Source of the DNA: Eledone cirrhosa
Lineage: Eukaryota
Direction of reading: 5' to 3'
NCBI GenBank assembly: GCA_964016885.1
Contig: CAXHJY010001082.1
Span: forward strand, 20,513 to 84,512
DNA: 64,000 nt
Under the pieces are notes generated by a model that saw only the letters and a program-made list of their open reading frames with translations, ran no database searches and was not told the DNA's origin. Positions 14,761-51,523 of the stretch are shown piece by piece (the first letter of the stretch is position 1; each line of letters starts with the position of its first letter). Both the position numbers and the translations under genes were made by a program.

Positions 14761-14954
14761 TAACGAAGGAAATGTGGTAAGGAACCAGGTGGACCATAAC
14801 GCACCAAAGTACTCAATACTTAGGGTAGTAGAGTGGGTAATAGGAACGAGTAGGACCCCGAAGGCTGAGCTCAAGCCGTTTCGACGGCTAATTCTGGACT
14901 AATTAGCCGTCGAAACGGCTTGAGCTCAGCCGTCGGGGTCCTACTCGTTCCTAT
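14761..14954. mobile_element. Fold-back PLE-type terminal insert, family A copy 1
   Basis: 54-bp inverted arms 14840-14893/14901-14954 with one mismatch; carries HHR 3' half GAAACGGC..GCCGTC; (AT)n on both sides. Confidence 0.75.
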
Positions 14955-15513
14955 ATATACATATATATAGATATATGTGTATTGGTGTGTATGTGTGTGT
15001 AGTTACGTGCATATGTATATATATATATATATATATATATATATGTGTATGTGTGTGTATGTATATATGTGTGTGGGTGTATGTATGTCAGATTGTTTAT
15101 TTTCTATTTCATCACGTGACAAAGCTGAAGAATTCACCATTGAATGGAATAAATAAAGGTAGAAATTGTATGTGTATTGGATATTCAACTGGATATTCAA
15201 CTCATTCAACATGGCGTACACCATTGCTGTAGAATTAATAAAGGAACCATTGCAGAAGAAATAATGAAAGACGAGGTGAATGAACGTTAGAAAAAATGGA
15301 TGGAATTAGAAAAAAATAAATGGCTAAAGTGATTTCATTTAGAATGCGAAATCTGAAATCTGAAATATTTACGTAATATGAAGAATCGAAATCTAAACCT
15401 GTTTATAAATGTTTATTTACCATTCTTTCTTGATTTACCATTCCTTCCTTCTTTCTTTCTTTATTCCTCTCTTTCTTCCATCTCTTTCTTTCTTCTCTTT
15501 CTTTCTTTACCAT

Positions 15514-16558
15514 TATATATATTTATTTATATATATGTATATATGTATATGTATATATATATATGTATATATATATGTATATGTATATATATATATGTAT
15601 ATATATATGTATATGTATATATATATATGTATATATATATATATGTATATATATATATGTATATGTATATATATATATATATATATATATATATATATGT
15701 ATATATGTATATATATATATATATGTATATATATATATATGTATATATATATATATATATGTATATATATATATATGTATATATGTATATATATATATAT
15801 ATGTATATATATATGTATATATGTATATATATATATATATATGTATATATATATATGTATATATATATATATATGTATATATATGTATATATATATATAT
15901 GTATATATATATATATGTATATATGTATATATATATATATATGTATATATATATATATATGTATATATATATATATATGTATATATATGTATATATATGT
16001 ATATATATATATATATATGTATATATATGTATATATATGTATATATATGTATATATGTATATATATGTATATATGTATATATATGTATATATGTATATAT
16101 ATGTATATATGTATATATATGTATATATGTATATATATGTATATATGTATATATATGTATATATATGTATATATGTATATATATGTATATATGTATATAT
16201 GTGTATATATGTATATATATGTATATATGTATATATGTATATATGTATATATGTATATATATGTGTATATATGTATATATATGTGTATATATGTATATAT
16301 GTATATATATGTATATATATGTATATATGTATATATATGTATATATATGTATATATGTGTATATATGTATATATATGTATATATATGTATATATATGTAT
16401 ATATATGTATATATATGTATATATATGTATATATGTATATATATGTATATATGTATATATGTATATATGTATATATGTATATATGTATATATATATATAT
16501 ATATATATATATATATATATATATATATGTATATATATATATATATGTATATATATAC
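15514..16558. repeat. G-interrupted (AT)n array
   Basis: Direct reading. Confidence 0.95.
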
Positions 16559-16738
16559 GTTATTCCGGGTTGAATCGGAGGTAACCACAGTAAGTAAGGT
16601 ACTCAATACATAGCAGAGTATAACAGTTTTAATGTAGATGAGATTCTACAGGACTAGAACTGTTTCATTCATTAGAAATGATGATTTCTAATGAATGAAA
16701 CAGTTCTAGTCCTGTAGAATCTCATCTACATTAAAACT
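16559..16738. mobile_element. Fold-back PLE-type terminal insert, family B
   Basis: Perfect 55-bp inverted arms 16625-16679/16684-16738 with a 4-nt loop; GAAACAGTTCTAGTC HHR-like 3' half; (AT)n flanks. Confidence 0.75.
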
Positions 16739-17234
16739 ATATGTATATATATATATATATGTATATATATATATATATATGTATATACATGTGTCTATAC
16801 GTATATAGATACATGTATACGTATAAGCAAGTGTGTATATACTTATATACATGTGTGTATATACTTATATACATGTGTGTATATACTTATATACATGTGT
16901 GTATATACTTATATACATGTGTGTATATACTTATATACATGTCTGTATATACGTATATGCATGTATGTATTTACGTATCTACAGTAGATGTGTGTATACG
17001 TACATACATACATGTATACGTATATGCAAGTGTGTATGTGTTTATATACGTATATGTATGTGTATAGTTCCCTACGCATGTATTTATAGAAGAAGACCAC
17101 ATGTAGTAATCTGTAAATGTAGAAGAAATAATCCCAAAAGATGCGAAAGATTTAAGAAAATTCTAGAAAATAAGTTGGACCAATTCTGGCCTGTAGAGAA
17201 AATCTCTAAAGTATGTTTTTGTTTTAATAGTATC

Positions 17235-17915
17235 GGTGGTGGTATTGGTGGTGGTATTGGGGGTGGTAGTGATGGTGGTGGTGGTAGTGGTGCTGATCGT
17301 GGTAGTGGTGGTGGTGGTAGTAATGGTGGTGGTGGTAGTGGTGATAGTGGAGGTGGTGGTAGTGATGATGGTGGTGGTAGTGGTTCTGATAGTAGTGGTG
17401 GTTGTGGAGGGGGTGGTAGTGATGGTGGTGGTGGTAGTGGTGCTGATCGTGGTGGTGGTTGTGGAGGGGATAACGGCAGTGGTTGGTTAGTGGTGGTGGT
17501 AGCTGTGTTGGTGGTAGTTGTGGTGTTGGTGATAGTTGTTGATGTTGTGGTGGTGGCATTGGTAGTATAGGTGATGGTGGTAGTGGTGCTGATGGTGGTA
17601 GTAGTAGTGCTGGTGGTAGTTGTTGATGTTGTGGTGGTATTAGTAGTGTAGTTGTTGATGTTGTGATAGTATAGGTGATGGTGGTAGTGGTGCTGATGGT
17701 GGTAGTAGTAGTGCTGGTAGTAGTTGTTGATGTTGTAGTGGTATTAGTAGTGTATTTGTTGATGTTGTGGTAGTATAGGTGATGGTGGCAGTGGTGCTGA
17801 TGGTGGTAGTAGTAGTGCTGGTGGTAGTTATTGATTTTGTGGTAGTATAGGTGGTAGTTGTGGTGATTGTGCTGGTGTTAGGGGTGAGGGTACTGATGGT
17901 GGTAGTTGTAGTTGG
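17235..17915. repeat. (GGT/AGT)n degenerate repeat with internal higher-order duplications
   Basis: Direct reading; ~100-bp unit repeated about 3 times at 17560-17850. Confidence 0.88.
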
Positions 17916-18925
17916 TTTTTGTGGAGCGAGAGAATCCTAGACTTCACCAAGACATCTCGCTAGGAGACAGGCACACTCATACTTACGACTTCGTTTGCAT
18001 CCAATGATGTAGATCAGTTGTTCTTTTAAGGCAAATGCATTCGGTATTCAAAGAGTGGCATTGGCCCAGCCTTTCCTCAGTTTCAAACACAGGCATCGCT
18101 TGATATGTGGCATTTTCTCGCGGCGTGTGGTATTGCTGGCCATCATGTATGTATGTATGTTATATCTTTCTCTTAATTTCGAGTATATTTTTGACCGGCC
18201 ACCTTCCTGGTGGCAAGGTTGTAAAAGAAAAGAAATTGTCATCCCTTGAATCGCAAGAATGTTTTGTAAATTTTGAAGGTGCCAGCTATCGCAGCCATTT
18301 GTAGACTATGAATTAGGGAGCTGCGCTCTTTGTCCGCAAATCCAAGTTTAGTTATACATTGGTCCAAGCGGGTTGGTATGTATGTATGTATGTATGTATG
18401 TATGTATGTATGTATGTATGTATGTATGTATGTATGTATGTATGTATGTATGTATGTATGTATGTATGTATGTTCTTCTGGTTTTATAATTTCACAAATT
18501 TTTGCCAATAGAGAGAGAGTGGGTTTCTAACATAGACACAAGACTCTCTCATTGTAATTTACACAACATCAACTAGGTATATATGTATGTCTGCATGCAT
18601 GCTTGTGTAGGTATGGATGTTATTGTACGTGTGGATGTGTATATTTTGAGTCTGATGTGTGCATGTGTATACGATTTGTATCTGTACATGTGTATATACA
18701 GTTATTAGATGCAAAATCTTTGGAATGTTTTACATATTTTCACTGTTCCATTAATGAATTGTACTTGTAATTTACAAACTAGTTATGTTCTTTCTGTTCC
18801 TGTGAAGCCTAGCTTCTCAAGATTTGTATTGAAGAAGTTACTAACATGTACTAATATGTGTGTATGTATTTATGTATGTATGTATGTATGTATGTATGTA
18901 TGTATGTATGTATGTATGTATGTAT

Positions 18926-49634: not shown

Positions 49635-49985
49635 TCCGAGCATCTAACTTACACTGCTTCGGACTCACACACACGGACATCCACCAACTCCTCTCCTTCG
49701 TTGTGGATAATGCACTCTTCAATTTCCTCGGCCACACGTAGAAACAAATCTCTGGGCTACCTATGGGCTCTAGTCTGTCCGGCATACTTGCGATCTCGTA
49801 TATGGACCACCTGGAACGCAAGGCACTCAATACCTGCCAACCCAACGCCGTCGCCTTCTACTCCAGATACGTTGATGACATCCTGATACTTACTTCTTCC
49901 CGGGAGATGGCGAATGAAATTCACCAAATCTTCAACGATACTGACCATCACGTCGATTTCACCATCGAACACCCAGGAGAAGACA
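49635..49985 (+). pseudogene. Penelope-like element reverse transcriptase fragment
   Basis: [58 protein letters not shown]-type RT motifs; in-frame stop, truncated. Confidence 0.88.
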
Positions 49986-50333
49986 TTTGTTTTTGACATT
50001 TTGAATATTCATCCGCAATCATTATTATTTTTTCTCTCTATCATAAATCTTTTTAATCTCAATTTCATCCTTAATTTATCATTATTTTTTTCTCCCCATC
50101 AACGAACTCATTATTAATACATATCAATTCAATATACAAACTTTAACTTCACATTATTTTTCTCAAATCCTTCTACACTTCTCAAATCCTTCTACACTTC
50201 TCAAATCCTTCTACCTTAACAATTTTTCTCTTCGCTAATTTTGAAATTGCCACAATACATACATTTCTTCTTTTGACGTTAGAATATTCACCCACAATTA
50301 TTATTTTTTTCTCTCTATCTTCATACATAATTT

Positions 50334-50746
50334 CCCTTCGTTAATTTTCAAATTCCTTTAATTTATACATTATCTTCCAACGGTTCCCAACCTCTCTATA
50401 TTAAAACAATATATCTTTTTCTCAGTTATAAAAACTATCTCTTTCTCTCTATCACCCATCTCTCCCTCTCCACCTTCACTCTCATCTCCTCCCCCCTTTT
50501 TTTTCATCCTTTCCACCCCACCCTCCCTAAATAAAATATTTTTTCCTCGCACATATCCTCCCTTCGTTAATTTTCAAAATTTTTAATTTATACAGTATCT
50601 TCCAACGGTTTTCAACCCCTCTATGTAAAAAATATATCTCCTCTCAGTTATAAAAACTATCTCTTTCTCTCTATCACCCATCTCTCCCTCTCATCTCCTT
50701 CCCTTTTCATCCTTCTCCCCCCCCTCTCTAAATAAAATATTTTTCA
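50334..50746. repeat. ~206-bp direct duplication
   Basis: CCCTTCGTTAATTTTCAAA..TAAATAAAATATTTTT at 50334 and 50540. Confidence 0.85.
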
Positions 50747-50840
50747 CAATATCACACATCAATCTAAAACCACTTTTCATATGTTGATTTAAAACTGCAC
50801 TATCAACAAGTGTTTTTTTAGCCTTCATATCATGTTCTCC

Positions 50841-50911
50841 TGTTTTATCTGATGAAAACACAAATATTATTGCTTGATGATGTTTGTTTTTGAAATGCGC
50901 ATAATAAAATA
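50841..50911 (+). ncRNA. Hammerhead ribozyme in a PLE terminal repeat
   Basis: tgttttat-CTGATGA-(~16-bp stem II, GCTT loop)-GAAA-tgcgca-TA-ataaaata; palindromic stem III ATGCGCAT; same strand as the upstream PLE RT. Confidence 0.88.
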
Positions 50912-51360
50912 CATGGAACTCCTTTAACCATCTTTTGATCTTATATTATATATATATATATATATATATATATACATATATATATATATATACATATATA
51001 TATATATATATATATATATATATATATATATATATATATATACATATATATATATATATATACATATATATATATATATATATACATATATATATATATA
51101 TATATACATATATATATATATATATATATACATATATATATATATATATATACATATATATATATATATATATATATACATATATATATATATATATATA
51201 CATATATATATATATATACATATATATATATATACATATATATATATATATATATATATATATATATATATATATATATATATATACATATATATATATA
51301 TATATATATATATATATATATATATATACATATATATACATATATATATAAATACATATA

Positions 51361-51523
51361 TAACAAAGGAAATGTGGTTAGGAACCAGATGGACCATAAC
51401 GCACCAGAATACTCAATACTTAGGGTAGTAGAGTGGGAAATAGGAAAAGGTATGACCCCGCCGGCAGAGCTCAAGCCGTAGAAACGGCTTGAGCTCTGCC
51501 GTCGCGGTCATAATTTTTCCTAT
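51361..51523. mobile_element. Fold-back insert, family A copy 3
   Basis: Homologous to copies 1 and 2; arms 51440-51479/51484-51523. Confidence 0.75.

Follow-up and report, generated by a model that had tools for sequence, protein, structure and literature searches.

Fold-back insertions of a Penelope-like element in Eledone cirrhosa point to priming by both target strands at two fixed leader sites

As the available text of PMC8557442 describes them, insertions of Penelope-like elements (PLEs) can carry an inverted truncated copy and a one-sided tail and are targeted to (TA)n; in the accessible parts of that paper and of PMC3846280 the palindromes are put down to self-priming or left open. 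In PMC11167929 a purified PLE protein cuts both target strands and extends them, the tail being set by the two internal RNA positions at which extension starts; inverted or head-to-head products are undiscussed in the main text and three supplementary text files of that work. Paired hammerhead motifs 100-700 bp apart on opposite strands are described in the available part of PMC4209133. Head-to-head copies, one-sided tails, pseudo-long terminal repeats (pLTRs) and the role of the hammerhead are called open in PMC8557442, PMC3846280, PMC2377424 and PMC11167929, as far as their available text goes. Here we analyse a 64,000-nucleotide stretch of the Eledone cirrhosa genome (the window; contig CAXHJY010001082.1, positions 20,513 to 84,512), in which three short fold-back inserts lie in (AT)n. 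They are the shortest products of an autonomous PLE, and we consider it probable that such inserts form when both strands of a (TA)n target prime on the leader of element RNA, run off the RNA 5' end and are joined.

The inserts (Table 1) had been picked out in a preliminary description, and their common ends and inverted arms of 54, 43 and 40 bp are borne out by sequence and by BLAST of the copies against the window, which holds these three copies only (87.6-89% identical, E 1e-41 to 1e-66). All start (AT)n-TAAC(G/A)AAGGAA and finish CCTAT-(AT)n, with (AT)n on both sides, and a target duplication is unreadable within these flanks. We number the element from the last T of CCTAT (position 0, site A); the end of the tail, GTTAT, is then +80 (site B). 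The CUGAUGA half of a hammerhead had been reported missing from all three copies, and a search for a CTGANGA half found it in none. The tail-bearing arms of copies 1 and 2 end at -60 (14900 and 41152), the early turn (-39/-42) being confined to copy 3. That of copy 1 has a private G-to-T change at -22 and is 98.6% identical to the natural copy L098, and the predicted hammerhead cut of this insert falls at 14934/14935. The tail-less arm of copy 2 is likely a -57 start that lost 12 nt between two GAAA words, and a similar loss is present in L178. Short-read contigs from three runs of one sample, possibly the source sample, show loose (TA)n ends at 41092 and, on the opposite strand, joints that end at 41149-41152 (-57 to -60); no contig from these runs spans a whole window insert.

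The full-length parent with an open reading frame (ORF) and hammerhead that the preliminary description called for was found. Its unit of 3.55-3.6 kb comprises pLTR, tail, 5' untranslated region (UTR), ATG at +171, a single ORF encoding reverse transcriptase (RT) and, at the C terminus, a GIY-YIG domain, and about 1.3 kb of 3'UTR; 5' and 3' pLTR copies lie about 3.55-3.6 kb apart, as a partial tandem, in most of the 17 leader loci fetched at length. Past site B the parent reads on from TTCGTTAT into CTAGC, the 5'UTR and the ORF, with 153 exact tail-to-5'UTR junctions genome-wide, and copies such as L015 can be followed beyond site B to the ATG at +171. Sites A and B are therefore both internal and neither is the RNA 3' end, contrary to the proposal that one of the two cDNAs is primed there. 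The ORF has a YRDD-type RT motif and a VIY...YIG motif and is unbroken in two of the 17 loci (L398, 695 codons; L408, 682 codons). Homologues with the same RT and GIY-YIG layout number 334 at E ≤ 1e-10, and a Pfam scan of two ORF fragments returned no family. The ORF carries HSDKTG (DKT), the linker CNCPDGSIC (CxCX5C), PCNLC (CxxC) and CKH (CxH), and has a single cysteine between VIY and YIG, the CCHH cysteine pair of the GIY-YIG core being missing as in the Hydra clade; L015 has RWR, its homologues RWR or RWK. These motifs match the Hydra clade as the available text of PMC8557442 describes it, an assignment by motif description among homologues that are unnamed or 'uncharacterized'. In four insertions (L399, L403, L406 and L408) private variants are common to the 5' and 3' pLTR, and in L406 they recur in the inverted arm, as expected for parts all copied from one template.

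The hammerhead in the pLTR reads ACCCC-(U/C)UGANAA-stem II-GAAA-stem III-GUC-GGGGU, a type I form with a long loop II (about 35 nt) and a 5-bp helix III. Its 5' half is (U/C)UGA(U/G/A)AA and not the CUGAUGA expected of the parent: UUGAUAA, UUGAGAA or UUGAAAA (the U3-A8 form) occur in several subfamilies and CUGAGAA in others. A U3-A8 covariant core is the hammerhead variant of PMC4209133, according to the available text. The type I hammerhead is the lowest-energy fold in L264 and L265 (U3-A8), not in L280 and L098 (C3/A8). Cleavage is predicted to fall between -20 and -19. The best 150 of 723 Rfam matches in the window are microsatellite-driven miRNA models, with no hammerhead among them.

Across the 3.0-Gb genome the outer ends were sought as exact patterns of 31-33 nt, and the counts are lower bounds. 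The tail-less end lies directly on (TA)n in 11,861 exact matches, by a pattern that misses the TCTTACT subfamilies, and the tail end in 25,648; reversed-pattern controls for both gave 0 matches in the same 3.0 Gb. From the first part of contig C1 we took 163 loci as they came in the list (93 with their anchor at site A, 70 at site B), which after removal of 4 duplicates left 159 parsed insertions. One A arm and one B arm stand head to head in 115 of them. The claim that the outer ends are fixed is upheld, with one end per arm at all lengths: partner A ends are exact in 37 of 42 B-anchored inserts, and the other five are 1-3 letters off. The pairing of A with B is kept by the 14 long inserts shown, out of 20 regions fetched for a long arm, and by all seven full-length copies whose inverted partner could be seen whole. 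In 13 of these 14 long inserts each arm is longer than 100 nt, so that long or short is decided per insertion and not per arm.

The centres of the 115 A+B inserts vary, with microhomology at 53 junctions, blunt joints at 17 and added bases, all private, at 45; 103 geometries are distinct, and the commonest (A-60/B-54, 8 inserts) is shared by three or more subfamilies and also exists as its mirror image. Subfamily letters agree between arms in 74 of 79 inserts, and among 29 B-anchored inserts the arm distance is 0.026 within against 0.076 between inserts (0/2000 permutations). This supports the earlier suggestion that palindromes are made afresh and speaks for one source per insertion. In three inserts (L112, L202, L349) one end lies on (ATC)n/(GAT)n instead of (TA)n, consistent with AT/TAT pairing sufficing. 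At a separate locus, L291 (G000:C3:214144500-214149500), five or more units of 273-274 nt (-82 to +191) follow one another in tandem up to an end at site A; variants alternate between the units, and the inverted partner arm bears the same unit junction, which suggests that both its arms were copied from one circular or tandem RNA.

The inner ends were said to turn near the ribozyme. They are not just near it, nor are they diffuse, but pile up at two positions, -60 and -19. Of 207 arms that reach -53, 181 stop by -67, and the per-base stopping rate at the -60 edge is 0.058 against 0.0055 and 0.0058 in the flanking stretches. The search pattern obliges A-anchored arms to reach -26; in the unconstrained partner A arms of B-anchored inserts, 34 of 42 end at the -60 edge. 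Position -60 is the A of TTAGT/TCAGT, a word inside hammerhead loop II that resembles the known Initiator (Inr) consensus. Among 66 long copies it reads TTTAGTC in 54 and TTCAGTC/A in 8, and a TATA-like box of the TATT(C/T)A(T/A)ATA type lies 29-32 nt upstream. We infer that -60 is the probable transcription start. An mRNA that starts there would carry only the 3' half of the ribozyme in its leader, and the edge likely accounts for the ribozyme half missing from the inserts. TATA/Inr-like motifs occur in rotifer pLTRs (available text of PMC3846280), and a Penelope transcription start has been mapped inside the pLTR (available text of PMC2377424).

The second peak lies immediately 3' of the predicted cut. 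At -19, 304 clean starts of the tail-bearing arm are counted genome-wide, against 61 at -20, 59 at -22 and 35 at -15, and both arms stop at -19 with 1-2 added bases in 11 of 30 fetched -19 loci as compared with 1 of 67 unselected inserts. Position -19 would then be the RNA 5' end left by hammerhead cleavage. Jump products, sought among 30 fetched of the 153 leader copies, repeat the same two positions. After a segment ending between +171 and +296, the sequence restarts at -60 to -64 in six loci (L261/L262, which are one locus, L263, L277, L279, L281 and L288) and at -19 in two (L273 and L289), as if the enzyme had reached a fixed end and switched to another template. In L263, L277, L279 and L288 the A-ended arm contains leader sequence missing from the B arm, which indicates that site A primes on RNA. 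In five jumps found genome-wide, a segment that stops at -20 (exactly in 4, ambiguously in 1) is followed by a start at -60/-59; L364 has a complete hammerhead and 3'UTR to -20, four added bases, and then -60 to +80. As an internal control, the spacers of four of these five fail to continue the parent (binomial 0.003 at 1 in 6, from a small number). The idea that the arms come from two templates, prompted by an early set of loci in most of which the long arm had T at -22 where the short arm had G, was rejected: T is present in 0 of the first 100 unselected matches, so the earlier loci had been picked for a rare variant.

We therefore regard head-to-head, 5'-truncated pairs as the probable outcome of the following steps. 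The endonuclease would open both target strands in (TA)n, and each target end would prime via TAT, using either of the internal RNA sites, A (CCTAT, 0) for one end and B (GTTAT, +80) for the other. Both cDNAs would run off the RNA 5' end, at the start site (-60) or at the cut (-19), and host end-joining would link their 3' ends, the two arms usually having copied one and the same RNA, or RNAs of one kind. Priming on a template that extends upstream of -60 would give the long head-to-head copies; passage beyond -60 may be by read-through RNA, by circles or by transfer of leader cDNA to a ribozyme-cut 3' end. This scheme accounts for fixed outer ends, a one-sided tail, the missing ribozyme half and centres that are clustered but variable. 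The preliminary description had each (AT)n strand prime a cDNA, and both arms do behave as separately primed cDNAs; the TAT microhomology that it placed at the internal site is present there but is not distinctive, since the tail end has it too. Its stereotyped twin-priming route is not new in outline, the architecture being published for PLEs.

That a single site-B cDNA snaps or copies back, or that an antisense RNA primes itself, central deletions later making the arms unequal, is unlikely in our estimate. Central deletion is a known fate of palindromes and could mimic part of the arm inequality. The shared subfamily letters (74/79), a perfect stem of at least 10 bp with a 0-2 nt spacer in 32 of 115 centres, and the ending of both arms together at -19 would all suit such an origin, and rotifer PLE head-to-head palindromes are attributed to antisense self-priming in the available text of PMC3846280. 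However, the A arm outruns the B arm by at least 8 nt in 39 of 115 inserts and the reverse holds in 20, in 10 the B arm stops within the tail and has no sequence in common with the A arm, and in L094, L100 and L108 the A arm carries kilobases of ORF where the B arm has 0.2-0.5 kb. Jump segments are moreover confined to the A arm, spacers of 0-1 nt are too short for priming loops, and copying back would leave the stop at position 0 unfixed. A ready-made 200-bp palindrome that spreads as a unit, like a miniature inverted-repeat transposable element (MITE) or a short interspersed element (SINE), would explain why inserts mostly measure about 200 bp and are centred near -60, and why a few junctions recur (A-60/B-54). 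Its turning points would have to be deletions from an ancestral -60 centre, the case that was expected to overturn formation afresh. It fits poorly with 103 distinct geometries among 115 and 45 private additions, and the recurring junction spans at least three subfamilies and is mirrored; the 80-nt tail is one-sided, so that the ends are no terminal inverted repeats, the A+B rule extends up to full-length copies, and the outer ends, exact in 37 of 42 partner A arms, are fixed and not truncated. We judge this origin very unlikely.

Twin priming could also be right while -60 and -19 are sites of RT stalling or RNA processing, set by an RNA fold, a bound protein, a G run or a splice acceptor. Position -60 is near the top of stem II and matches TTTAG, a G run begins at -19 just 3' of stem III, and a subfamily effect at -19 is absent. 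A hairpin would nevertheless halt synthesis at the 3' foot of the stem (-22 or -44), positions with few counts (59 at -22), and the 3' strand of stem II has already been copied before the -60 edge. Jumps and added bases at -60 and -19 are typical of run-off ends, the acceptor segments end at -20, on the opposite side of the same predicted cut, and a spliced junction at -58 is found in none of 285 sense motifs at -59 (16 jumps listed). Stalling or processing seems quite unlikely as the source of the two peaks.

Several observations weigh against priming by both strands with run-off at these two ends. Forty-four of the 159 insertions were not parsed as A+B: 35 show no partner within view, their arms being long or solo, 8 carry an A+A label and 1 a B+B label; most of the A+A labels are A+B with damaged tails or long arms, and L137 is a true A+A. 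Within a subfamily the arm-to-arm distance nearly equals the copy-to-copy distance (0.041 vs 0.045; 0.031 vs 0.032), which leaves one shared molecule for both arms unproven, and arm concordance could also reflect gene conversion, or subfamilies whose activity fell in different periods. The TTTAG at -60 doubles as a splice-acceptor-like word, and the edge is resolved to -60/-63 only, because added As can imitate the parent's three Ts; chance extension blurs it likewise. The four positional patterns behind the -19 count differ slightly in their flanking filters. Ribozyme-competent subfamilies were thought commoner at -19 and this was rejected, the matched U3-A8 core not being enriched there (TCTTACT(G/T)G in 19/30 by eye vs 27/45); a C3/A8 core should be impaired, yet no subfamily effect appears at -19. 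In vitro the template was mainly uncut RNA, with no reads ending at the cut site (PMC11167929). A search for RNA runs listed none with the element, which speaks neither for nor against the scheme; start site and cut are both read only from scars in DNA.

A retrovirus-like, target-primed strong-stop replication of these PLEs is a doubtful extension. The mRNA would start at -60 inside the hammerhead and end at the cut of the downstream pLTR (-20), giving a 41-nt terminal repeat; both target ends would prime in the 5' leader and run to the cap. Transfer to the cut 3' end would yield long copies, regenerated pLTRs and tandems, failed transfer would leave the cDNAs to be joined as 200-bp fold-backs, and L364 might be such a jump caught with its scar. 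Templates of read-through or circular RNA would explain seamless long copies just as well.

Neither the element nor its general form is unusual among PLEs, but the family keeps a remarkably readable record of a mechanism that is still open. Its minimal insertions, tens of thousands in number and with ends mappable to the base, point to priming by both target strands at two fixed leader sites, favour run-off on sense RNA over antisense self-priming and may hold indirect in vivo traces of ribozyme-cut RNA being copied. The literature searched, subscription papers being outside its reach, holds no account of turning points that mark a start site and a cut. The unbroken frames of L398 and L408 make the scheme testable in the published in vitro assay.

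Table 1. Coordinates of the three fold-back inserts, their arms and the flanking (AT)n in the window; element positions are counted from site A.
Feature	Coordinates	Strand	Element positions	Remarks
Copy 1	14761-14954			194 bp; inverted arms 54 bp
Copy 1, tail-bearing arm	14761..14900	-	-60 to about +79	3' half of hammerhead, then site A and 80-nt tail to site B
Copy 1, tail-less arm	14901..14954	+	-53 to 0	GAAA-stem III-GTC; CCTAT end on (AT)n
(AT)n left of copy 1	14748..14760	.		likely target
Copy 2	41013-41198			186 bp; inverted arms 43 bp
Copy 2, tail-bearing arm	41013..41152	-	-60 to about +79	subfamily differs from that of copy 1
Copy 2, tail-less arm	41153..41198	+	-42 to 0	CCA in front
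Copy 3	51361-51523			163 bp; inverted arms 40 bp
Copy 3, tail-bearing arm	51361..51479	-	-39 to about +79	
Copy 3, tail-less arm	51481..51523	+	-42 to 0	extra A at 51480 separates arms

The window contains other repeats. A fold-back of a different family at 32935-33125 has long inverted arms, each with CTGATGA...GAAA hammerhead-like halves (+33046 and -33007), and (TA)n on its right, and a third family at 63510-63870, with arms of about 160 bp, has CTGACGA...GAAA at +63765 and -63625 and (TA)n on its left. A lone minus-strand hammerhead-like motif (CTGATGA...GAAACGCGCGTA) lies between (TA)n runs at 35570-35690, and a related GAAACGCGCGTC motif stands beside a 170-bp fold-back near 945-970 of L007. 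Sixty bp from copy 2, a high-copy repeat at 41255-41445 carries a poly-G run and a minus-strand CTGACGA...GAAA motif, and L012 holds a relative of it at 770-860. Matches of 39-49 bp to the family's 3'UTR (around -690 to -645) at 10605-10653, 12883-12921, 27118-27164, 27332-27379 and 41710-41754 are probably a separate small repeat shared with the family.

In L1 twin priming the element RNA likewise serves two primers, one from each target strand, and microhomology accompanies the head-to-head joining of the cDNAs; one of the primers uses the poly(A) end, the other an internal site that varies, and there is hardly any overlap between the parts. The Eledone family does not follow this type, as both of its priming sites are fixed and internal and the arms copy the same region, the same 60 nt. 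Nor is it a MITE or fold-back DNA transposon, a type with inverted repeats at either terminus and a common internal sequence: its 80-nt tail lies outside the inverted repeat and 103 of 115 centres differ. A non-LTR retrozyme has tandem units each with a complete type I hammerhead, according to the available text of bioRxiv 10.64898/2026.07.22.740005; those in the window stand head to head without the 5' half, which is missing from the 273-nt tandem of L291 as well.

The likeness is to PLEs. With the endonuclease-positive (EN+) PLE insertion units of PMC8557442 and PMC3846280, as their available text presents them, the family shares the partial tandem of the pLTR, a head-to-head, 5'-truncated inverted copy, a one-sided tail, (TA)n targets, the hammerhead and TATA/Inr-like pLTR motifs. 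The tail is 80 nt here as against 30-40 in the published elements, and most insertions are about 200 bp with turning points at two exact positions, a pile-up that the accessible parts of those papers do not report. With the Hydra clade, in the available account of PMC8557442, it has in common the C-terminal GIY-YIG, DKT, CxCX5C, CxxC, CxH, the lack of CCHH and the (TA)n target. It differs in having a unit of 3.55-3.6 kb where 'generally <3 kb' is given (a tendency and not diagnostic) and a hammerhead core of U3-A8 or C3/A8 form; at the RWK motif L015 has RWR and the homologues either version. The minimal type I hammerheads of PLEs in the available part of PMC4209133 likewise combine a short helix I, a longer helix II and the U3-A8 core, whereas loop II here holds promoter-like motifs and the short inserts keep the 3' half only. 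Finally, Poseidon of Anolis in vitro (PMC11167929) also has two internal start sites downstream of the hammerhead cut and an AT-rich target. Cut RNA was unseen as a template for Poseidon, while ends at the cut site are recorded here, and its start sites have no target homology and are alike for both strands, whereas in the Eledone family both sites end in TAT and an insertion nearly always has one of each.

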